From Dictyostelium discoideum (lineage: Eukaryota): DNA of 64,000 nt. Position numbers and translations under genes: made by a program. This document shows, piece by piece, positions 10,748 to 49,847 of this stretch. The notes beneath the pieces are model-generated. The model was not told the DNA's origin and ran no database searches. It saw only the letters and a program-made list of their open reading frames with translations. Within the stretch, counting starts at the first letter, position 1. Each line of letters starts with the position of its first letter. The stretch is from assembly GCA_000004695.1 (NCBI GenBank), contig CM000151.3, positions 4,768,001 through 4,832,000 on the forward strand, read 5' to 3'.

Positions 10748-14720
<3,973 letters not shown>

Positions 14721-15186: not shown

Positions 15187-16498
15187 TTAATTTTTAATTT
15201 TTTTTCTTTCTGAACTACATTCACTACAATTGAATGATTTAAAAGGTGGTACACAATGAATATAAACACCAATTGTTAAACAAGCCATAATTGGACCAAC
15301 CATATATGGCCAAATATTTTCAAATTTTGATAAAACAATCGCTGGTGATAAACATCTTGCAATATTAAAACCAAAGATATAATTGGGTGCAATACCACCA
15401 GATGCTATAATTGAAAGACATAACATTCCTGAAATGAAAAATGAACCTGTAATTGGTCCTAAAAAAGGTGTTTGACGTGGATCAAGTGCCGTTCCAAAAG
15501 AAACATACAAATTAAATAGTGAAAGCATATATTCTAACCCTAATGCTCCACTTGGTGTTATAGATTGTCCAAATGAGCACATACCTAAATTTCCTCTACT
15601 CATAACATCATTTGGTAAAATTCCTTTAATTATAGCTGACCCAATAACTCCACCAACAATTTGTGCAATCATATAAATTATACATCTTATAACTTTTTTA
15701 TTATAAAATATTAGTAATTATTTAAATAAATAAAATAAAATAAAATAAAAAATACATACAAGAAGTATAACCAGCGAAAAATGTTGCTAATGTAATTGAT
15801 GGATTTAAATGACCACCACTAACAGGTGCACATGCTAAAATTAATAAAAATAATAATGGTATATGTAAAAGACCACTTAATATTGGTACTTTATAATTTG
15901 GTACACTATTTGATAATTGTTGTAATGTGAAATCATCTAAATTTGAAATATATGAAAAATTGAAATAATTTATAGAGGATGTAAATATTGCTATAGACAT
16001 AAACATGAAAAGTGCTGTACCAACCATTTCAGTAATTGCTGCCCTATATAATCCAATATTATATAGTTCATTTATACCTGAAATAAAATTTAATTTCTCT
16101 ATACACTTTTCTTTAAATGATTTTAATTTAATTTGAGGTGATGATGATGGTGATGGAGATGGTATTTTTCCAATATTTTCTTCCTCTTGACCTTCTTTTA
16201 TTATTACAATTTCTTTTTCATCCTCTTCTTCTTTTAGTTTTGTTTCAAAATCTGATAATTCTATACCTTGATCATTTTCGGTATCAATATCTTCATGATT
16301 ATGATCAAGTGATTTTTCAAGTGAAATTGATTGTTGTTTTTGTAGTTGTCTATTATATTGTATTAAACTTCCTTGGTAAAATGGTATTTCAACATATCTT
16401 ATTGTTTTTTTGGGTATTCTCCTTCTAAATCTTAAATTATGAGTTCTTTTATTATTATTATTATTATTATTTACTTTATCGTCATCCATTTTTATCAC
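15187..16498 (-). CDS. Aquaporin/MIP-family channel with non-canonical filter motifs (NPS ... NIA), ~414 aa. Model: complement(join(15187..15692,15760..16498)) with a phase-1 intron (donor T|GTATGT, acceptor AAAAAAG|TT)
   Basis: 'SGGHLNPSITLATFFAGYTS' + 'F' + 'IRCIIYMIAQIVGGVIGSAI' aligns position-for-position with AQP1 '[41 protein letters not shown]'. The second half-helix 'FGFNIARCLSPAIVLSKFENIWPYMVGPIMACL' aligns with '[33 protein letters not shown]'. There is a long N-terminal cytosolic extension with poly-N and acidic stretches. Confidence 0.75.
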
Positions 16499-16887: not shown

Positions 16888-18574
16888 TTATTCTACATCA
16901 GTTAATCTAAAAACATAAACATATGGTGGATAATCTTGTGGTGCAACCATTGGAATGTTTAGTGTAATACCAGGTTTTGTTGATTCAATTGGTAATGATA
17001 CTTCAACACCTTTTTCACCTTTTAAACCTAATAAAGTTGCTTCTGTTTTATTATTACCAATTGGATCACTTAAAATTAAAACACCATCATCTGGTAATTC
17101 AAATACAAATGCATAAACATTACCATTGGTAGTATTTGTAGTATACCAGATGTTAAAAGTCATATTTTGAACTCTCCATGGTGAACTACCATAAATTGAT
17201 TCAGAATTAATTGATAACCAATTACCAATCTCTAATAAACGGTCAACCATATTATTTGGAATTGTACCTTGAGCATCTGGGCCTACATCCAATAAGAAAT
17301 TACCACCACATGCAACCGTTGTTACCAAATCAATTATTAACTCTGTAGCATTTTGATAATCAGTAGCCTGTTCATATTCATCATAACCATATGAATATCC
17401 AATGGTTGCACAATTTTCCCATTTATGTGATTGAAGTTTATATGGATTAAAATGGTCAGCACCAGTATAAAATCCACCATTCTTATCTCTACATTCACTT
17501 CCCCATCTATCATTTACAATTACTGTATCTTTAACACTACTATTTGTATATAACCAACTTAAAAATTCTGTTGATTTCCAATAATTACTTAATTGCATCC
17601 AATCACCATCTGCCCAAATTAATTCAGGTTCTAAAAAATTAAAAATTAAAAAAAAAAAAAAAAAAAAAATTATATTAATAAATATTTTTTAATTAATTAA
17701 TTAATTATATAATAAAAAACCACATACCATATGTTGTAACAATATCTTTTAATTGTTTCATTAAAATTTCATCAACATAAACTTGAGTTGTTGGGTTTTT
17801 ACCAGTTTCAGCATCTGCAAGATATAATGGATTAAACCATTCTATTTTTTTTTTTTTTTTTAAAAAAAAAAACAATATTAGTATTAAAATTAATAAATAA
17901 TAAATTTAATAAAATATTTACCAAATAAAGAATGATAAAGACCCATATGTAAACCCATGTTTTTAACAGATTTTGTTAACTCACCAACGATATCAATACC
18001 AGGACCAGTTTCAACAGAATTCCAATTCCATGATTGTTCACTATTCCAAAGGGTATAACCTTCATGATGTTTTGATGTTAAAACTACATATTTTGCACCA
18101 GATTTTTCAATTATTGATGCCCATTCATTAGCATCGAATAAACGACAATCAAATCTTGAAACGAAATCTTGATATGTAAAATTGGCTCCAAACTCTTTTT
18201 CATGATATCTTTGTGTTGCACCACCATCAGAACTTGGATTTTTTAATGTCCACCAATACCATTCTGCATATCCTCCATTTGCAAATGCTGGTACACTATA
18301 AATTCCAAAATGAATAAATATTCCAAACTTTACATCATCATACTATAATATATTATTATTATTATAAATTTTTTAAAAAAAAAAAAAAAAAATATTAATA
18401 AAAAGTAAAAAATAATAATTATAAAAATAATAATAATAATAATAATAAAAATATAATAATATTTACCCAACCTGGTAATGGTCTTGAATTAATTTGGTCC
18501 CATGTTGGTCCATACTGTTGAGATTTAATTAAATTTAATATTAACAATATAAAAAAAATGATTATCATCTTCAT
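16888..18574 (-). CDS. alfA: Alpha-L-fucosidase (GH29), ~461 aa. Model: complement(join(16888..17630,17728..17841,17922..18342,18467..18574))
   Basis: Exon 1 is a signal peptide (MKMIIIFFILLILNLIKSQQYGPTWDQINSRPLPGW). Exon 2 carries the GH29 N-terminal core 'YDDVKFGIFIHFGIYSVPAFANGGYAEWYWW...HHEGYTLWNS'. The last exon carries 'ACGGNFLLDVGPDAQGTIP'. All three introns begin GTAAAT/GTATGT, end AG, and their phases reconcile (108 + 421 + 114 + 743 nt). The symbol alfA is inferred from the known D. discoideum fucosidase gene name; identity to that locus is not verified. Confidence 0.8.
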
Positions 18575-18726
18575 TTTTTTTATTTTTTATTACTTTTTAT
18601 ATTATTATTACACCAATACTTGTAATCTAAAAGATGTGAAAAAACAAAAATAAAAAAATATAAAAAAAACAAAAACAAACCCCTTTTTTTTTTTATTAAT
18701 AATATTTTTATTTTTATATTTATATT

Positions 18727-18764
<38 letters not shown>

Positions 18765-19016: not shown

Positions 19017-19066
<50 letters not shown>

Positions 19067-19072
19067 GTTACC

Positions 19073-19340
19073 TTGAAAGAGGGAATAAAATAATTTATTT
19101 ATTGAATATTTTTGGTCCAGTAAGGAGTCAAAAGCTAAATTTTCAAATAAAACTAACCTCCTCTTCCCCCATAAAGAAGGAGTTTGAACGAGCAAATACG
19201 CGATCTCCTTGAAGAGCCGGACTCACGTATAACCCTCGCCCAAGGAGGAGATGTCTAACCATCTTTTAGCCCTAACCTCTTCCGGAAGAGCTCCCCACCC
19301 TCAGCCCCCGGATAATTTGATTTGATTTGATACAGTATTT
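19073..19340. other. GC-rich (~50% G+C) structured island flanked by poly(A) (19019-19063) and T-runs; candidate ncRNA or transposon end module
   Basis: The composition breaks sharply from the surrounding >85% A+T. It contains the perfect 14-nt palindrome CTCTTCCGGAAGAG and a second long hairpin (GATCTCCTTG...CAAGGAGGAGAT). No ORF and no tRNA-like A/B boxes are recognisable. Confidence 0.4.
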
Positions 19341-20346
19341 TTTTTTTCAGTAAATATCCTCACCTAAAGACCACCACATGGACTCATAACCACACACCTT
19401 CACCCAAAGACCACCACATACTGACGCATACCCACCCATCCAAACTCCATAAAATTGATACCTAAAAATACTGAATTAAAAATAATTGATTATTATTCTG
19501 TTTTTGCTTTTTATTATTTTATTTTTTTCTTTTTATTTATAATTATATATAATTCTTACCCTATAATCATAAAATATTAAATAGTTACCAATTGACCACC
19601 ACACCTAATACAAATGATACATTAATTAATTAATTTTTTTTTTTACAACACATACCTTCACCCAAAAACCACCACATGTTGACGCATACCCACCCATCCA
19701 ACCCCATTTGCTTTATACCTAAAAATACTGAATTTAAAATAATTAATTATTATTTTTTTCTTTTTATTTATAATTATATAATTCTTACCCTATAATCATA
19801 AAATATTAAATAGTTACCATATTACTACCACACCTAATACAAATGATTTTTTTTTTTTTTTTTTTCACAACAATCATCATTTGTATTAGGTGTGGTAGTA
19901 AATTGGTAACTATTTAATATTTTATGATTATAGGGTAAGAATTATATAATTATAAATAAAAAGAAAAAAATAATAATTAATTATTTTAAATTCAGTATTT
20001 TTAGGTATAAAGCAAATGGGGTTGGATGGGTGGGTATGCGTCAACATGTGGTGGTTTTTGGGTGAAGGTATGTGTTGTAAAAAAAAAAATTAATTAATTA
20101 ATGTATCATTTGTATTAGGTGTGGTGGTCAATTGGTAACTATTTAATATTTTATGACTGTAGGGTAAGAATTATATATAATTATAAATAAAAAGAAAAAT
20201 ATAAAATAATAAAAAGCAAAAACAGAATAAAAACCAATTATTTTTAATTCAGTCTTTTTAGGTATCAATTATATGGGGTTTTGGTTTTTGGGTGAAGGTA
20301 TGCGTTGTAAAAAAAAAAATTAATTAATTAATGTATCATTTGTATT

Positions 20347-20393
<47 letters not shown>

Positions 20394-20626
20394 TTTTCAC
20401 CACACACACCTTCACCTAAAGATCACCACATGTTGACGAATACCCACCCATCCAACCCCATTTAATTGATACCTAAAAATACTAAATTTAAAATAATTAT
20501 TATTCTGTTTTTGCTTACTATTATTTTATTTCTTTTCTTTTTATTTATAATTATATAATTCTTACCCTATAAAACATAAAATATTTATGACTTACCTTAA
20601 AGTTCATCAATTGACCTCATACAAAT

Positions 20627-20680
<54 letters not shown>

Positions 20681-20900
20681 CACAACACATACATTCACCT
20701 AAAGACCACCACATGTTGACGAATACCCACCCATCCAACCCATATGCTTTATACCTAAAAATACTAAATTTAAAATAATTTATTATTATTCTGTTTTTTC
20801 TTTTTATTCATATGATAAAAATATTTAATCTACCACCTATAAATTAAATTAAAAATACCTACCTTGAAAGACCACTCACCGTATGACGCACACACATAAT
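19340..20900. mobile_element. Cluster of ~8 copies of a ~230-250-bp repeat unit that carries a poly(A) tail in one orientation. Four copies form an imperfect ~1-kb palindrome (arms 19380..19858 and 19874..20345, centred on a T15 run at 19859..19873). Two further direct copies lie at ~20396..20640 and ~20685..20900
   Basis: The unit is (plus-strand orientation) poly(T)-CACAACACATACCTTCACCCAAAGACCACCACATGTTGACGCATACCCACCCATCCAACCCCA...CCTAAAAATACTGAATTTAAAATAATT...TTATAATTATATAATTCTTACCCTATAATCATAAAATATTAAATAGTTACC...ACCACACCTAATACAAATGA. Exact reverse complements (e.g. GGTAACTATTTAATATTTTATGATTATAGGGTAAGAATTATATAATTATAAATAAAAAG) appear at 19874..20105 and again at 20105..20345. Family assignment (TRE, DIRS, thug, DDT or other) is not possible from memory. 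Confidence 0.7.
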
Positions 20901-21317: not shown

Positions 21318-22330
21318 TTAATTTTTAAAATTTGTTTTTTCAATAATTAAATAAAGTTGAGATAATTGATCAAGATCTGTGATATGAATACAATGTTGAG
21401 ATCTATAATCTACATATTTATTTCTTTGAAGATGTTTCAAAGTGTAATAGTAAACCATCTGGAGTGATTTCGCAAGATTTAATATTTCAAAAGTAGAAGA
21501 CCATCTGAATGAGTAGTTATTCCTTATTTGTTTGTTTAACAAGGACAATACGAAGATTTGTTATTAAGGTGATATAATTCTTTACACTACCACCACCACC
21601 ACCATTATTGAAATAAATGATATAGAGATGGGAATTTTTGAATCTACCCTTGAAAGTTGTTTCCAAAATGTAGTGACCCTCTGATTGTTCGTGGAAATTA
21701 TATTCAACCAAAAGATTATCAGTGCCAAATAAACGTGGTGGTTCCGATAAGAATGGATTCTCCAATACAATGCATTCAAACATAATGGCGTTCTATCTAA
21801 ACCAATTAGGTCAATTAATGATACACCAATTCTTGGTAATGATAATTGTAAATCCAATTTACAATTTTCAACACAGTTTGTGATAAATATGATGATGAAT
21901 CATCCTTTGGTTGATCATAATTATTATTATTACTATTATCATAAGATAATAGTAATACACATATTGGTCCATCAACTTTCATAAATGAATGCAATTTGTA
22001 TTGATGCCTATTTTAATTGGTTTAAAATTCTTACAACCCAATATTACACAATTGATGAAGAGTATGATGATTCAAATGTTGAATGATTTTCAATATATAG
22101 ATTATTATTATTATCATTATTTATATCATTATTTGAATTTGTTGTTGTTGATGATGATTATGATTACTATGATTGGAGTGGTAGTAATCATAATCATAAT
22201 CATCATCATAATCATCATCATCATCATCATCATCAAATTTAATTTGAATTAATTTTTCACCATGTCTATTTGGCCAATGGAATGGTTTTGATTCACCTGG
22301 TTCAATTGATTTACAATCTTTGTACGTTGT
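21318..22330 (-). pseudogene. Fragmented minus-strand coding locus of unknown function. It has several frame changes, at least one plausible 70-nt intron (21795..21864, GTAAAT...TTTAGATAG), and no identifiable start codon. It is either a multi-micro-intron gene whose first exon I cannot find, or a decayed pseudogene
   Basis: Coding-like, non-low-complexity segments lie in three different frames: '...DCKSIEPGESKPFHWPNRHGEKLIQIKFDDDDDDDDYDDDYDYDYYHSNHSNH', 'HQYKLHSFMKVDGPICVLLLSYDNSNNNNYDQPKDDSSSYLSQTVLKI', 'NAIMFECIVLENPFLSEPPRLFGTDNLLVEYNFHEQSEGHYILETTFKGRFKNSHLYIIYFNNGGGGGSVK' and 'LLNKQIRNNYSFRWSSTFEILNLAKSLQMVYYYTLKHLQRNKYVDYRSQHCIHITDLDQLSQLYLIIEKTNFKN*'. No ATG occurs on the minus strand between 22321 and 22560. 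Confidence 0.35.
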
Positions 22331-22572: not shown

Positions 22573-24748
22573 TTATTTTTTAATTTTAAAATTATCAAAT
22601 GGAGCTAATTCATAATTTGCAATTGATTCAACTAACCATTCAGTTTTAACCATTGGAGCAGTAACTTTTTTAACTTCATAAGATTTAGTTGATTCTTCAG
22701 CAATACAAATTGAAGCCAATTCAATTGATTTACAAATTTTACCACCTAAATTTCTAATTAATTCTTCTTTTGATTTTCTATTAATACCACTTGGATCAGC
22801 TTTACCGGCCAAAAAGAATGTTTTACCAGAGAATAAAGGTTCATCACCATTCTGTTGTGATAAACGAGCCATGTTTGGACCTGGATGTTCATCAACTTCG
22901 TGATCTTCTTCGTTGTCAATGATTTGTTGTTGTTTAAAGGATTCCTCTAACCAAGAACGTTTTAAGACCCAAACTCCTTTTGAAACACCCAAAAGGAATT
23001 TAAGTGTTCTATTCTTTGAATCATTCATAATGACATGAGTACATTCTTTAGGATCATCTGAAACGGTTAACCCAATTACTCCCATCGACTCTATAATTGA
23101 ACTACGTTCACTATCATTAAAACCTGATAATAAAACCAATTTCAAATTATCTAAATCCTCTTCCTCTACCTCTGAGAAACTTTCATCATCTGATTCTTCT
23201 TGATGTTTTTTACTACCTCCTTTTTTCTTTTTACCTTTTGATGATTTCTCATCCTCTACTTCACTATCATCACTATCATTTTCATCCTGTTTGGTTCTTT
23301 TTGGCGTTTTTTTACCAGATCTGGTTGTATCACTTTTTGGTGATTTCTCTGCTTTTTTGGTTTTCTTTTTTGGTGATTCTTTTTCTTCATCTTCTTCCTC
23401 TTTTTCTTTTGGTTTTGGTTCAACTGATTTTCTTTTTGATGGTGTTGTATTTTTAGTTGGTGTTTTCTTTTTTGATGGTGATGTTTCTTCCTCATCATCA
23501 TCTTCTACTATTTTAGAAGTTTTCTTTACTGGTGTTTTCTTTTTTGATGATTGTTCTTCCTCATCATTATCTTCTTCTTCTTCTTCTTCTTCTTCTTTTG
23601 ATGTTTTCTTTACTGGTGTTTTCTTTTTTGATGATGATAATTTTGTTTCTTCCTCTTTATCATCTTTTGATATTTTCTTTACTGGTATTTTCTTTGTTGA
23701 TGTTTTCTTTTCTTCCTCTATTTCTTTTTTATTTGGTGTTTTTTTTGAAGTTGATGATTTAATTTCTTTATTTGGTGTCACTGCTGTTGGTACTTTAAAT
23801 GAGGATTTCTTTACTTTAGTGGTTTTCTCAACCTTTTCTTCCTTTTCTTCCTCTTCATCATCTTTTAATTTTTTATTTGATTTTTTAGTGGCAGCTGGTG
23901 GTTTCTTTTTTGTTTCTTTTTCTGTTGATTTCTTTGGTGTTTCATCTTCTTCCTCTTCCTCTTCCTCTTCTTTCTTTTTAGATGATTTTGAATCTTTTTT
24001 AGGAGTTGATTTCTTCTTTGGTTTTTTCTCTTCCTCATCTTCTTCCTCCTCCTCCTCCTCCTCCTCTTCCTCTTTATCTTTTTTTGATTTTGATTTTGAT
24101 GATGGTGCTTTCTTTGGTTTAGAAGCAGTTGGTTCAGATGGAGTTGACTCTTCATTATTGTTCTCCTCTTCTTCTTCCTCTTGATCTTTTTTCTTTTTAG
24201 TACTCTTTTTATCTGGTTTTTCAATTGGTGTAACTTTCTTTGATGGAGTTATATTTTTTTTGAATTTTTTTTGATCAGCTGACTCTTTATCATCATTATC
24301 ACTTTTAGCTGCATCATCAACTTTAATTTCTTCCTTTTTAGCTCTACTTTGTTTAGTTGGTGGTGGTGGTTTAGTTTTTTTAACAGGTGTTGCTGGTTTT
24401 AAATCTTCCTCTTCTTCTTCTTCCTCCTCTTCTTCAACTTGCTCTTTTGTTTCATTACCTTTGTAAGGTACTAAATCTTTACCATCTATTTTAAAAAAGA
24501 TATAATATATAAATAAGGATAAATTTATTACTTATATAAAAAAAATTTAACTTTTTTAAAAAAAACTTACTCTTTTTTTGAGATGACTCAGATTGTGATT
24601 TTTGAGATGATTTAGACTGTGAAGATTTAGATTGTGATGATTTTGTTTGTGAAGGTGATTTATTTATTGTTTGGTCAACTAATGGAGAAATAACAAGAGC
24701 AGTTGTTGTGACATCTGATGTTATTTTAGAAGATTCTATTTCTGTTGC

Positions 24749-25264: not shown

Positions 25265-26748
25265 TATTGGATCATTATAAATTGATAAAATCTTACTATT
25301 ATTTTCAGTATTTTCATTATCTAAAGGTTTCATAAATTTACCTCTAACCCAAACTCTATACATTGAAATCATTCTTTTTCTATTTCTTAATTCTCTTGTA
25401 TCATATTTTGAAACCAAAGTTTTAAAACCAGCAGCTTCAAATATTTCACTTAATACTTGAGTTGTAAAGAAATAAGTTCTAGTGCCATCTGCACGTAAAT
25501 AAAAGTTTTCATCAATCTTTTTACCTTTTTTTGAAATGAATCTTAATTGTGTCATATCATATAACCCATAATCTCTAATATATAATACACCACCTGGTTT
25601 TAATGACTAAAAAAATAAATAATAATAATAATAATAATTAGTAAATATTTATTAATGAGATTAATAAATAATTGTATAATTTAATATATATATATATATA
25701 TATATATTTACTTTAAATAATGAATTTGCAACAGCATGCATTTTATCTCTAGAGATTGCAGATAAAACGAAAATCATTAACATCATATCTATTGAATTAT
25801 CTTTAACTATTGAAGTTGGAATTTGTTCAGTTGCAATATCACAAACGAATGCATTTAATTTGGCTTCATTGTAGAGTGAATTTGATTTAACTAAATTGAC
25901 AGCATGTGGTGAGAAATCGAAAACATAGAAATACTTTTCAGGATTTAATTTTAATAATGGATAAACAGTTGCACCTGTACCACAACCAATCTCCAACACT
26001 GTTAATTTCTTACTCTCATCATTTGTTAACTCTTGAATATCTTTAACCCATCGATTTTTCAATTCTTTAATATCAACATTTTTAGATAATAAATTTGCCA
26101 TCTTTTTCTCTCTTTCTTTTTCTTGTTTTTCTAAATCATCTTTATCTTGATATAAATTATCACTACCACCACCACCACCACCATTCTCTGCACCTTCAGC
26201 AGCAGCATCATCATCTTCAAAAAATATAAAAGTTTCATCTCTTGTAATTTTTAATGGATTTAATTCTGGAAATTCTAAATGTAAATAAGTTCTATCTTTA
26301 AAGAATTTATTTTGATTCTTTTTATAAAATTTATCCCAATAATCCATTGCATTATCTTCATGATGAATTTTATCCTCTTCACCAATTATATCTGTTTCTT
26401 TTTCTGTAATTGATTTTGCAATCTTTTAAATTTTATAATAAAAATAATTAATATTGTTATTGTTATTGTTATTGTTATTGTTATTGTTATTGTTATTGTT
26501 ATTGTTATTGTTGTTGTTGTTTTTTTTATTATTTTAAAAAAGTAAATAATTAAGTTAAAGTTGGCACATACAGATTCTCTAACACTATCCCAATCGACAT
26601 CAGCCCAAGATGTTTCAGTTTGAATTTCTTCAACAACTTGTTTCTCTTTATCTTCACAAAATTTATAATTTACATCTGTCCATGATCTCTTTGAACCAAC
26701 TGTTGGTTCATCATTGGTGATATCACCATTTGAGGTTTTATTATTCAT
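25181..26748 (-). CDS. METTL2/METTL6-family SAM-dependent methyltransferase (tRNA N3-methylcytidine type), ~437 aa. Model: complement(join(25181..25606,25712..26422,26572..26748))
   Basis: The family-specific N-terminal motif is 'MDYWDKFYKKNQNKFFKDRTYLHLEFPEL'. SAM motif I is 'LTVLEIGCGTGATVYPLL'. Motif post-I is 'YVFDFSPHAV'. The C-terminus reads 'LKPGGVLYIRDYGLYDMTQLRFISKKGKKIDENFYLRADGTRTYFFT'. Both introns are phase 0 (GTATGT...TAAAAG and GTAAAT...TTTTTAG) and all exon lengths are multiples of 3. Confidence 0.8.
26454..26513. repeat. (TTGTTA)n hexanucleotide microsatellite, ~10 units, inside intron 1 of the methyltransferase gene
   Basis: Visible as ttgttattgttattgttattg... in the sequence. 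Confidence 0.85.
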
Positions 26749-31223: not shown

Positions 31224-32040
31224 TTAATCTTTAATTTCAACAACATATTCTGGTGAGAATTTACCATAAACACCTTTAGTTTCACCTTCCCATTCTTTTG
31301 GACTATTCTTTTTGAAAACATAAACAAGATCATCTCTAATTAAAGTTAATGTAGCATTATTAGTAGGAATACAATCTTTAATGACACGACAAGTTGCTAA
31401 AATTGGATTTGAATCAAATGCATCTTCATCATCCCAATCATCATCATCATCATTTTTTGGTTTTGGTGTTGGAGTTGGTGCTGCTGGTCTTGAAACTGGT
31501 GTTGGTTTTGATACTGGTGTTGGTGCTGGTGCTCCTGCACTAGTTGATGTTAATGGTCTTGGTGCTGGTTTTGGTACACCAGTAGTTGTAGGTACTGGAG
31601 TAGTTGTAGTTCCTGCTGCTATTAAAATATTAAAATTAAAATTTATTTATTTGATTAGTTTAAATTTTTTTTTTTTTAAAAAAAAAAAGAAACAACATAC
31701 GTTTTAATGGAGCACCTGCTGGTTTTAATGGTGATGGAGTTGGAGCACCTGCTGGTTTTAATGGTGATGAAGTTGGTGCACCTGCTGGTTTTAATGGTGA
31801 TGGGGTTGGTGCACCTGCTGGTTTCAATGGTGATGAAGTTGGTGGTGCACCTGCTGGTTTCAATGGTGAACCTGCTGGTTTTAATGGTGATGAAGTTGGT
31901 GGTGCTGCACCTGTTGGTGGAGCTGGTGTTGGTCTAGCTGCAACTGGTGGTGGTGTAGTAGTGGTACCAACTTTAGCGCCAAATGGTGATGGTTTTAATG
32001 GTGCTGGTGCTGGTTTTGCTAATGGTTTTCCAAAACTCAT
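31224..32040 (-). CDS. Proline-rich protein with a C-terminal SH3 domain, ~244 aa. Model: complement(join(31224..31618,31701..32040)) with a phase-1 intron (C|GTATGT...TTAATAG)
   Basis: Exon 1 encodes MSFGKPLAKPAPAPLKPSPFGAKVGTTTTPPPVAARPTPAPP...(SPLKPAGAP)n. Exon 2 ends with an acidic patch and 'ATCRVIKDCIPTNNATLTLIRDDLVYVFKKNSPKEWEGETKGVYGKFSPEYVVEIKD', which fits the SH3 fold pattern (ALYDY...GD.I.V....WW.G...G..G.FP..YV). The opposite-strand ORF 31381..31707 (Gly/Val-rich) is its antisense reading. Confidence 0.6.
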
Positions 32041-32166
32041 TTTATATGTATATGTAAGTGTATATTTAAAAATTGAATAAAAATAAAAAAATAAAAAACA
32101 ATAAAAAACAATAAACAGATATGAAAAATAATCCAACGAAAAAAAAAAAAAAAATAATCAAGTGAT

Positions 32167-46060: not shown

Positions 46061-46729
46061 ATTTAATACATATGTTCACCTTGATCACAATAAAATTTTG
46101 AAAAAGAATTATTTCCTAAAAAAAAAAAAAAAGAATTATTAATTAGTAATCAATTTAAAAAAAAAAAAAAATAATAATAATAATGATAATAATAATAAAT
46201 AATTTTATTACCTAAATGGAAAACAGTATTATTTGTATAAAAATAATACCATTGAGGATTACCTAAACAATTTGGATCAGTAAATTGAGAATATTTATAT
46301 GCATATTCTGGCATACTTGTTGGATTTTCTTTAATTGTAACCAAAACATAATTATATGGTTGATAATACATGTAACCAATATCTGGAACTTTGTAACACT
46401 CATTAGGAAAAAAAAGTTACATCATCTTCTGAATTTGAATTTGAACATGTAATATCAGACCCTTTATATAACTGAAATGTTGCATTTGCATTATCTTTTC
46501 CAAGTGTTTTATAATTATTTAAAGTTGATGTAAAATCACCAATAGCAAAACATTCACCAACAACAAATGCATAACAAACTCCATTTTCACCTTTTGATAC
46601 CGTACATTCATAATCTTCGTATGGTGTCATCTCTACATAATAAACTGATTCAACAACCAATATTGTTGAAAAACAACAAATTATAATAAATAAACAAATA
46701 AAATAAATTAAATTATTATTATTAAACAT
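45752..46729 (-). CDS. Secreted Cys-containing protein, paralog 1 of a local two-member family. Multi-exon model: exon 1 from 46729, extra intron ~46105..46190, an 11-nt micro-exon CATCAGTATTG at ~45934..45944, last exon 45752..~45861. Carries a +1 frameshift in the T8 run at ~46384..46391
   Basis: The N-terminus 'MFNNNNLIYFICLFIIICCFSTILVVESVYYVEMTPYEDYECTVSKGENGVCYAFVVGECFAIG' is 70-80% identical to the gene at 48957..49847. The central part 'PNECYKVPDIGYMYYQPYNYVLVTIKENPTSMPEYAYKYSQFTDPNCLGNPQWYYFYTNNTVFHLG' is likewise 70-80% identical but sits in a shifted frame after 'SEDDVTFF'. The C-terminal exon reads 'YCEDYPTNCTTSPELMTCGRNVFVWHEDIYRTVSC*'. Confidence 0.5.
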
Positions 46730-48956: not shown

Positions 48957-49847
48957 TTAACATGAATCTAAATAGTAAATGGGTTCTTTCCATGCCCATG
49001 CATTACGACTACATGGTCTGTATATATCTGTAGATGTGCAATTACTTGATGAACCTTCACAATACTATTTATAAAAAAAATATATAAAAATATTAGAATA
49101 ATTTTAAAAAACTAGTTTTCCTGTTTTTTTTTTTTTTTTTTTTTTTTTAAACTTACCAATTCGTATGCTAATTTTTATTTATATTATATTTGAATGAAAC
49201 AAATAAAATTTAATTTTATTAGGATCTATAATTTTAATATTTTATAATTTTTTTTTTTAAAAAAAAAAGGTTAAAATATACTTACGTTCACCTTCATCAC
49301 AATAAAATTTACTGAAATCATTATTACCATAATGGAATGTTGTACCATTTGTATAGAAAAAGTACCATTGGGGATTGGTAGCACAATTGGAATCACTATA
49401 TTGTGTGAATTTAAAAGCATACTGTGGCATGCTTGTTGGATTTTCTACAATTGAAACTAAAACATAATTATATATATTTGGATACATATTATTGTCAGCG
49501 TAATTTGGTGCATTATAACAACTTCCTGATTGATAAGTAACATCATTTACTGGATTAGCTTGTGAACATGTTGAATCTGAATTTTGATATTGATGAAATG
49601 TTGCTGTATTATTACCAACACCGCTAAGTGAAATCACATAATTATTAATTATTGGCGCAAAACTACCAACAGCAAAACATTCACCAACAACAAATGCATA
49701 ACCAACTCCACTTTCACCTTTTGAAACTGTACATGCATCATCTTCATATGGTGTCATCTCTACATAATAAACTGACTCAACAACCAATATTGTCGATCCG
49801 ATTAATAACAATAAACTTAAAAAATAAATAATATTTTCAAATTTCAT
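48957..49847 (-). CDS. Secreted Cys-containing protein, paralog 2 (intact). Model: exon 1 49847..~49300, 11-nt micro-exon CATACGAATTG at ~49155..49165, last exon 48957..~49066
   Basis: Signal peptide 'MKFENIIYFLSLLLLIGSTILVV' is followed by 'ESVYYVEMTPYEDDACTVSKGESGVGYAFVVGECFAVG...NPQWYFFYTNGTTFHYGNNDFSKFYCDEG' and, after two GTAAGT introns, 'YCEGSSSNCTSTDIYRPCSRNAWAWKEPIYYLDSC*'. I do not recognise the family. Confidence 0.55.

Follow-up and report, generated by a model that had tools for sequence, protein, structure and literature searches.

A non-coding, AT-rich palindrome of about 1 kb, with arms made of repeat-unit dimers, upstream of alfA in Dictyostelium discoideum

The intergenic DNA upstream of alfA in Dictyostelium discoideum contains an AT-rich palindrome of about 1 kb that is non-coding and is composed of short repeat units. 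We analyzed it within a window of 64,000 nucleotides (GenBank assembly GCA_000004695.1, contig CM000151.3, positions 4,768,001 to 4,832,000 of the forward strand), and all coordinates below are positions in that window. An initial annotation of this DNA had proposed a near-perfect palindrome of ∼1 kb; a repeat search, a gapped alignment, and a self-BLAST agree on it, and the structure is confirmed as real. The palindrome and its neighbors are probably a locus-specific, non-coding cluster of ∼200- to 240-bp units that was remodelled by errors of replication or repair at the DNA level, among them an inverted duplication.

The repeat search identified gapless core arms at 19430 to 19854 and 19869 to 20293, each 425 nt long, 96% complementary, and separated by 14 nt; it was on such a reverse-complement match between the left and right arms that the initial annotation had made its reading depend. 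When gaps were allowed, the arms extended over 19381 to 19846 and 19877 to 20348 (∼470 nt each), and complementarity over their inner 253 nt was perfect. Self-BLAST of the whole window gave a single reverse-complement HSP over the palindrome (888 nt, 93.9%), and the region proved to be the most prominent complex repeat of the window, in keeping with its earlier ranking as the most striking non-genic structure there. Judged from the sequence, a match of this kind cannot have arisen by chance. The AT content of the palindrome is 76%. Its spacer, which also forms the hairpin loop, is 30 nt long (19847 to 19876, not assigned to a strand; delimited by sequence, arm alignment, and DNA fold) and consists of a run of T19 (19847 to 19865), not the T15 first reported, followed by CACAACAATCA. 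Folding of the single-stranded DNA predicted one hairpin of ∼460 bp with a 28-nt loop and an energy of −436 kcal/mol, which bears out the hairpin capacity claimed for it. With near-perfect AT-rich arms of a few hundred base pairs and a short spacer, the region has the features of a palindromic AT-rich repeat, or inverted duplication. The likely structural consequence, going by the fold model, is hairpin or cruciform potential together with local instability; no product or function of the array is indicated.

Each arm is a dimer of one "short" (∼202-nt) and one "long" (∼237-nt) non-coding unit, and the four units meet head-to-head, two in each arm, as had been described. In the left arm, which reads on the minus strand, the inner unit L2 is short (202 nt, 19645 to 19846) and the outer unit L1 is long (237 nt, 19381 to 19617); both were delimited by blastn, MAFFT, and nhmmer, and they are joined by a linker (19618 to 19644, minus strand) that sequence and alignment show to be, in the sense direction, A11 followed by TTAATTAATTAATGTA. 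Beyond L1 lies L0 (19338 to 19380, minus strand), a T10 run with a 33-nt copy of the G-rich 3′ segment of the unit (19348 to 19380), which was found by the repeat search and MAFFT and matched by nhmmer at 19355 to 19392. The right arm reads on the plus strand and comprises the short inner unit R1 (19877 to 20078; blastn, alignments, and nhmmer), a linker of A11 and TTAATTAATTAATGTA (20079 to 20105; sequence and alignments), and the long outer unit R2 (20106 to 20308; alignments and repeat search), which has a 28-nt deletion in its G-rich part that is seen in both the unit and the arm alignments. A second copy of the linker and R3, a third unit cut short after 13 nt, complete this arm (20309 to 20348, plus strand; repeat search).

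The further direct copies claimed on the right are also present, as two units, D1 and D2, and then a head fragment, D3; by blastn, MAFFT, and nhmmer, all three share the orientation of the left arm (minus strand). D1 (20349 to 20628; MAFFT and nhmmer) is a long unit at 20398 to 20628 with a T43-A-T5 run at 20349 to 20397, and D2 (20629 to 20849; MAFFT and nhmmer) is a short-type unit, degenerate in its 5′ part, at 20681 to ∼20849 with a T52 run at 20629 to 20680. D3 (20850 to 20895; MAFFT and sequence inspection) is the degenerate head, or 3′ segment, of a further unit, joined to D2 through TTTTTAATTTAATTT without an A-run. All three dimers (L2-L1, R1-R2, and D2-D1) are ordered short to long, and MAFFT alignment of the units showed that the long ones are marked by one common insert of 21 to 22 nt. 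L2 and R1 are 99% identical, and L1 and R2 are 94.6% identical; D1 and D2 are older copies, 86 to 92% identical to the remaining units, D1 in particular matching the L and R units at 86 to 90%. The family is limited to 19338 to 20900 by blastn and nhmmer, and neither these searches nor self-BLAST found a copy in the remaining 62 kb of the window. The well-preserved full units all have one 5′ end, (T/C)CATTTGTAT, with an A-run immediately before it, and the runs ahead of these constant ends vary in length from 11 to 52. A constant 5′ end after variable A-runs would also be expected from nested retroposition into A-tails.

Several features of the array record duplication at the DNA level. The repeat search revealed a 230-nt tandem duplication (20052 to 20118 versus 20282 to 20348, 67 nt, 99%); the R2/R3 and R1/R2 junctions match at 99%, the 16-nt non-A linker included, which argues for tandem duplication of DNA. 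L0 likewise duplicates the end of L1 in tandem over ∼40 nt, at a spacing of 40 and with neither tail nor A-run between the copies (repeat search and MAFFT). The 3′ end of R2 is, to judge by its sequence, apparently converted to the R1 type. Divergence between the arms is unevenly distributed: the inner 280 aligned columns contain one dinucleotide swap, and the next 125 contain 8 substitutions (6%; Fisher P = 0.0005 to 0.002 for inner versus outer divergence), so that identity drops abruptly along the arms, from ∼99.6% near the center to ∼94% farther out. A single recent event fits this gradient less well than does conversion near the center or a history of two steps; the gradient accommodates the "recent origin or homogenisation" of the initial annotation and narrows it.

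A 2.7-kb spacer separates a VPS13_C-like gene from alfA, the alpha-fucosidase gene, and the array lies within it. The ATG of alfA is at 18574 on the minus strand, and the array starts 766 bp upstream of it, close to the ∼750 bp originally estimated. The surrounding ORFs are ordinary host genes, with no transposase or reverse transcriptase remnants, and the array itself, as had been noted, is free of ORFs of 60 aa or longer, poly-F artefacts aside. Adjoining the array is a non-coding, GC-rich segment (19081 to 19337, not assigned to a strand; composition and six-frame translation) whose core, at 19161 to 19310, has the highest GC content of the window (54%). This segment occurs once in the window by blastn and has no Rfam match, and its RNA folds are not significant (z = −1.6 and −1.7). 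Contamination with vector or E. coli DNA was considered as its source and rejected, no plasmid or E. coli match being found. On the far side of the segment lies an orphan head-like fragment, TCGTTACCTTGAAAGA (19066 to 19080, plus strand; repeat search), and its 12-nt core, TACCTTGAAAGA, recurs at 20859 to 20870, bracketing the whole complex; a 12-mer common to both boundary zones was matched in 0 of 2,000 shuffles. The proposed check for a target-site duplication (TSD) around the complex did yield a bracketing direct repeat of 12 nt, but this repeat lies within a degenerate unit head and need not be a TSD.

The initial annotation had likened the units to a SINE-like or 3′ retroelement module. 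On that explanation, the array would be a cluster of non-autonomous, A-tailed retroposons, possibly dimeric like Alu, mobilized by a resident non-LTR reverse transcriptase, with new copies repeatedly landing in the A-tails of older ones and one insertion reversed. The units are non-coding and about 200 to 240 nt long, as SINEs can be, A-runs of 10 to 52 stand at the 3′ end of the G-rich strand, full units have a constant 5′ end, some copies are truncated, and short 3′ fragments carry tails (7 nt with A19 for a putative lost unit X at the center and 33 nt with A10 for L0); the short-to-long architecture with an A-rich linker, seen three times here, is also that of dimeric Alu. We nevertheless consider this explanation unlikely. 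ARAGORN, and likewise Rfam, found no tRNA gene in the 64-kb window, no Rfam family passed the gathering or E-value cutoffs, and a B box is absent from the entire window even when 1 mismatch is allowed. The units lack a Pol III promoter and any head resembling a tRNA, 7SL, or 5S sequence, and the predicted RNA folds of single units are not significant (z = −0.5 and −1.5). Sub-threshold Rfam matches to miRNA precursors at the palindrome center were dismissed as a mere effect of the hairpin, being generic and far below gathering scores. No per-unit TSDs were recognized, the unit flanks being other units or homopolymers, and the copies are tandem or inverted, with none dispersed elsewhere in the 64 kb. 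Dictyostelium's known non-LTR retrotransposons, TRE5 and TRE3, target tRNA genes, inserting upstream (at about 50 bp) or downstream (at about 100 bp) of them (PMC5633606), whereas the window has none. The R2/R3 junction, which repeats the R1/R2 junction down to the 16-nt linker, points instead to duplication of DNA, and a near-perfect palindrome is not a product of retroposition. As for the tails, the statement that each unit ends in a long homopolymer holds at most junctions but fails at L1/L0 and D3/D2, where there is none. Within the arms the runs are A10 to A11 and at the center T19; the right-hand copies have T43 (+A+T5) and T52. Such runs are a weak sign of retroposition here because they are common across the window, where A/T runs reach 10 nt or more in 288 places, 20 nt or more in 65, and 30 nt or more in 27. 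It is the oldest units, ∼10% diverged, that carry pure A52 and A49 runs, and this suggests upkeep by slippage rather than relic tails. To our knowledge, no SINE has been described from dictyostelids. An uncatalogued, dimeric, A-tailed dictyostelid retroposon, and/or a ∼460-bp hairpin with a perfect stem that is transcribed by read-through from the upstream VPS13_C-like gene and serves as an endogenous hpRNA source of siRNAs, would be a bolder variant, which we regard as a long shot.

A catalogued Dictyostelium element, whether a thug/DDT-S-type DNA transposon, a foldback-like element, or duplicated TRE untranslated modules, is a decidedly doubtful source. Long inverted arms of tandem subrepeats without coding capacity do resemble foldback and thug-type elements, the 12-nt direct repeat surrounds the whole complex, and the GC-rich segment could be a transposon end. 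Against this, the arm ends, 19381 and 20348, showed neither TSDs nor recognizable terminal motifs, the direct copies D1 and D2 fall beyond the arms, and the bracketing 12-mer belongs to a degenerate unit head. As described, thug-S possesses miRNA hairpins and an intron (PMC4894637). Of 28 D. discoideum miRNA or probe sequences from the literature, not one aligns to the window at <4 mismatches, although none of the 28 is known to derive from thug-S. TRE5-A is built of modules A (200 bp), B (290 bp), and C (134 to 137 bp) (PMC3159450), and modular non-coding ends of 134 to 290 bp that finish in oligo(A) are common to TRE5 and TRE3 (PMC3159450, PMC5633606). Units of ∼200 bp fall within that size range, although the 202- and 237-nt units come near module A only, and by size alone (PMC3159450). 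The array has no remnants of ORF1 or ORF2, or of any transposase or reverse transcriptase, and lacks the nearby tRNA gene or B box that TRE placement requires; the initial annotation, too, had offered no match among known elements. Long palindromes are difficult targets for cloning and assembly, and the perfect complementarity of the inner 253 nt could be read as an artefact, with the inverted arm created by chimeric joining or by mis-assembly of a tandem array. This seems highly improbable. The arms differ by 10 substitutions and the 28-nt deletion in R2, the right arm has an extra linker and 13 nt, the left arm has the 40-nt duplication, and the outer flanks are wholly different; such arm differences and unlike flanks argue against a chimera of cloning or assembly. 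The center also keeps T19 and CACAACA, which make sense as what is left of a unit tail, and no adjoining vector or E. coli sequence was found.

Remodelling of a local cluster at the DNA level is the explanation of the anatomy that we favor. A tandem array would have been reshaped by slippage, unequal exchange, and template switching, through events that included the 230-nt and 40-nt tandem duplications, the 28-nt deletion, and the inverted duplication of a dimer. In the central event, a stalled fork or a break would have led, probably through fold-back switching of strand or template, to the copying of a short-to-long dimer in the opposite orientation, and the inverted copy would have replaced the neighboring unit X except for its last 7 nt. 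T19 and CACAACA at the center would then be the tail and the last 7 nt of X, with ATCA as junction filler, and the outcome would be a palindrome of 76% AT whose arms are ∼470 nt and whose spacer is 30 nt long. Later gene conversion from arm to arm, or a second event, may have left the centre-proximal ∼280 nt almost identical. The homopolymers at unit junctions would be spacers prone to slippage, of a sort usual in this genome, and not tails left by retrotransposition. The anatomy, the identity gradient, the duplications of DNA, and the lack of coding or RNA-gene signals are observed; template switching, gene conversion, and instability are what we infer, and the fragility, amplification, and assembly collapse raised by the initial annotation likewise. 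A simple inversion of a segment of the direct array was considered and rejected, as reverting 19866/19873 to 20348 restores no natural unit junctions. A template-switch step leaves no unique signature behind. The GC-rich segment, the bracketing 12-mer, and the origin of the first unit fall outside the DNA-remodelling model.

Among known systems, PATRRs and fold-back inverted duplications are similar in being near-perfect, AT-rich (76% here), non-coding palindromes with arms of several hundred base pairs, a short spacer, and a predicted single hairpin or cruciform of great stability. The present palindrome, known from sequence alone, differs in that its arms are two tandem units each, set within a larger direct array, and its asymmetric center, with a 30-nt spacer, should lower cruciform extrusion. 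It shares with the conversion-maintained palindromes of the human Y chromosome arms more alike than the age of the flanking copies would predict; those palindromes, however, measure tens of kilobases to megabases, compared with about 1 kb here, the present arms have no genes, and conversion is suggested here by a single sequence, not by population or phylogenetic data.

If real in vivo, this would be a compact natural AT-rich palindrome within a tandem array, in a haploid, gene-dense genome of 78% AT, and it could be of use in studying template-switch inversions, arm-to-arm conversion, and hairpin-driven instability. The gene 766 bp away, alfA, is developmentally regulated. The array opens no long-standing question. 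For annotation purposes, the appropriate label is structure-prone repeat, not gene or classified transposon, since such repeats can disrupt assemblies, PCR, and cloning and can mislead small-RNA or repeat annotation.

Scans outside the window, in metagenome, genome, and viral contigs, gave no relevant match, and a search of a protein collection with the C-terminal exon of AlfA brought up only relatives of 51% identity or lower. A 30-nt head motif had 0 exact matches in metagenome and viral contigs, and in the contig scan a 23-nt AT-rich unit motif and a 20-nt G-rich unit motif each gave only one chance match, of 26 nt and of 20 nt (the latter in an Amycolatopsis genome), respectively; k-mers of the units and of the GC-rich segment returned nothing relevant in the full text of the papers searched. 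Canonical G-quadruplex motifs are absent from the window. Long homopolymers are concentrated at this locus: 3 of the window's 8 A/T runs of at least 40 nt fall inside this 1.7 kb, a clustering that slippage alone explains only loosely.

The palindrome lies in a spacer of 2.7 kb bounded by the stop codon of a VPS13_C-like gene (21318) and the ATG of alfA (18574), both genes on the minus strand; the repeat array containing it starts 766 bp upstream of alfA. A repeat search returned gapless arms at 19430-19854 and 19869-20293, 425 nt long and 96% complementary, and BLAST of the window against itself gave one reverse-complement HSP of 888 nt. The palindrome claimed in the initial annotation is thereby borne out as a genuine feature of the sequence, well outside what chance would produce. 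Gapped alignment placed the arms at 19381-19846 and 19877-20348, separated by a 30-nt spacer, T19 plus CACAACAATCA; the central run had previously been given as T15. The AT content is 76%, and 19338-20400, as single-stranded DNA, is predicted to fold into one hairpin of ∼460 bp with a 28-nt loop (-436 kcal/mol).

For alignment by MAFFT, the G-rich strand of every unit was taken as sense, which puts an A(n) run at the end of each. A short subtype (∼202 nt) comprises L2 (19645-19846) in the left arm, R1 (19877-20078) in the right arm, and D2 (20681 to ∼20849) to the right of the palindrome; a long subtype (∼237 nt), marked by a 21- to 22-nt insert, AAAAAGCAAAAACAGAATAA, comprises L1 (19381-19617), R2 (20106-20308), and D1 (20398-20628). 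In all blocks a short unit is followed by a long one to form a dimer: L2-L1 and D2-D1 on the minus strand, R1-R2 on the plus strand. The linker is A11 plus TTAATTAATTAATGTA in the L and R dimers and A52 in the D dimer, with an A49-type run after D1. L2 and R1 are 99% identical, and L1 and R2 are 94.6% identical; the D units are only 86 to 92% identical to the rest, which makes the D dimer the older one and the L and R dimers recent relatives. Neither blastn nor an nhmmer profile built from the six units found family members within the window outside 19338-20900. The array is the window's only complex repeat, barring three weaker matches and a 513-nt direct repeat (46205-46697 and 49321-49831; 73% identity), the sole other sizeable non-simple repeat.

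In the gapped alignment, the inner 280 columns from the centre contain a single TA/AT dinucleotide swap (253 nt are perfect), and the next 125 columns outward contain 8 substitutions, beyond which arm homology ends at a 28-nt deletion. The difference in divergence between inner and outer arm is significant (Fisher p = 0.0005 to 0.002). A single recent duplication would predict uniform identity; the gradient suggests either that an inverted duplication of greater age was later homogenised near the centre or that a second, smaller event took place. The "recent origin or homogenisation" proposed initially is refined accordingly, homogenisation or a second event being favoured over a single recent duplication.

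Several junctions record remodelling at the DNA level. The segment 20282-20348, where the end of R2 gives way to the linker and then to the initial 13 nt of a third unit, is 99% identical to the R1/R2 junction (20052-20118; spacing, 230) in the repeat search; it is a tandem duplication or conversion taking in the non-A linker. A truncated head, L0 (19348-19380), is a 40-nt tandem duplication from the L1 3' segment, with no A-run between the two; the G-rich block of R2 carries a 28-nt deletion; and where D2 meets the head fragment D3 (20850-20895), TTTTTAATTTAATTT takes the place of the A-run found at other junctions. The palindrome centre retains T19 plus CACAACA, an exact match to the tail and final 7 nt of a unit in minus sense, for which the counterpart is the T52 plus CACAACACATAC of D2; from this remnant we infer that the inverted R block took the place of the body of an earlier unit, X. 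Simple inversion of an array segment was rejected because reverting it gives no natural junctions; a template switch or fold-back producing an inverted duplication is the better fit.

We consider it reasonably probable that the locus reflects inverted duplication and later conversion in a small, locally amplified non-coding array, that is, DNA-level change and not transposition, with no function indicated. A small repeat array would have been amplified locally; template switching or fold-back within it would have generated an inverted R block that displaced the body of unit X, leaving the tail and 7 nt; and conversion between the arms would have followed. The palindrome resembles both palindromic AT-rich repeats and conversion-maintained palindromes, and that it is an assembly artefact is highly improbable. 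The locus is worth flagging chiefly as a structure-prone site, and it may serve as a model of inversion by template switching where the genome is extremely AT-rich.

The initial annotation had likened the units to a SINE or 3' retroelement module, and a cluster of SINE-like retroposons would account for the variable-length A-runs at unit 3' ends, the constant unit 5' end, (T/C)CATTTGTAT, the tailed 3' fragments, and the Alu-like short/long dimer. However, A/T homopolymers are ubiquitous in the 64 kb (288 runs reach 10 nt, 65 reach 20 nt, and 27 reach 30 nt), although three of the eight that reach 40 nt lie together at this locus, within 1.7 kb. The long homopolymers described at unit ends are indeed present as 3' A-runs, but they measure only 10 to 11 nt inside the arms, and two unit junctions have no A-run. 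The purest and longest runs belong to the oldest units, which slippage fits better than relic tails. Neither a tRNA gene nor a B box with up to one mismatch was found anywhere in the window, and searching Rfam at gathering or E-value thresholds returned no family for the array. RNA structure in a single unit was not significant on either strand, per-unit TSDs were not found, and the window holds no second array locus; the ORF search likewise found none in the array, as initially noted. The retroelement reading is not supported by these tests, and we regard it as unlikely. Membership in a catalogued Dictyostelium element, compared by description only, is more doubtful still. TRE5 and TRE3, known D. 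discoideum non-LTR families with modules A, B, and C of 200, 290, and 134 to 137 bp, are defined by insertion ∼50 bp upstream or ∼100 bp downstream of tRNA genes (PMC5633606, PMC3159450), a position that the array does not share. Thug-S is described as a DNA transposon with a miRNA-hosting intron (PMC4894637, PMC6161686); none of 28 published miRNA and probe sequences maps to the window. Metagenome, viral, and prokaryotic genome contigs scanned with conserved unit motifs yielded no matches, or none exceeding the pattern in length, and k-mers from the units and from the adjoining GC-rich segment returned nothing relevant from a full-text paper collection.

Directly left of the array is a non-coding segment of 272 nt (19066-19337), preceded by an A46 run (19019-19064), whose core (19161-19310; 54% GC) is the window's most GC-rich 150 nt. 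Within the segment is a perfect 14-nt palindrome, CTCTTCCGGAAGAG. By blastn the segment is unique in the window; it matches neither Rfam families nor plasmid or E. coli sequences, and gives no RNA fold signal. A 12-nt direct repeat, TACCTTGAAAGA, at 19069-19080 and 20859-20870 brackets this segment and the whole array; none of 2,000 shuffles matched its length. Because the right copy lies within the degenerate head D3, the repeat may be either an orphan array edge or the TSD of a composite insertion. The long homopolymers clustered here are, besides the A46 run, an imperfect T59 (18705-18763), T43+ (20349-20397), and T52 (20629-20680).

GC content per kilobase is 14 to 33% across the window, whose ORFs belong to unremarkable host genes of a eukaryote, in keeping with Dictyostelium discoideum. 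On the minus strand these include a UCH protease (10748-13729), a MIP channel (15722-16498), and the GH29 alpha-L-fucosidase alfA (exons 16888-17598; signal-peptide exon starting at 18574), whose 16888-17598 exon has no relative more than 51% identical in a large protein collection. Immediately right of the array is the small VPS13_C-like ORF (21517-21783, minus strand; VPS13_C-terminal domain match, E = 6.6e-8). The array lies downstream of its stop codon on that strand, so any transcript reading past the stop would run across the palindrome. A BRCT protein (22573-23781) and a methyltransferase (25661-26347) follow, both on the minus strand. Tandem SPLKPAGAP-type Pro/Ala-rich repeats in a further minus-strand ORF (31660-32136) are the source of the window's second most GC-rich spot.
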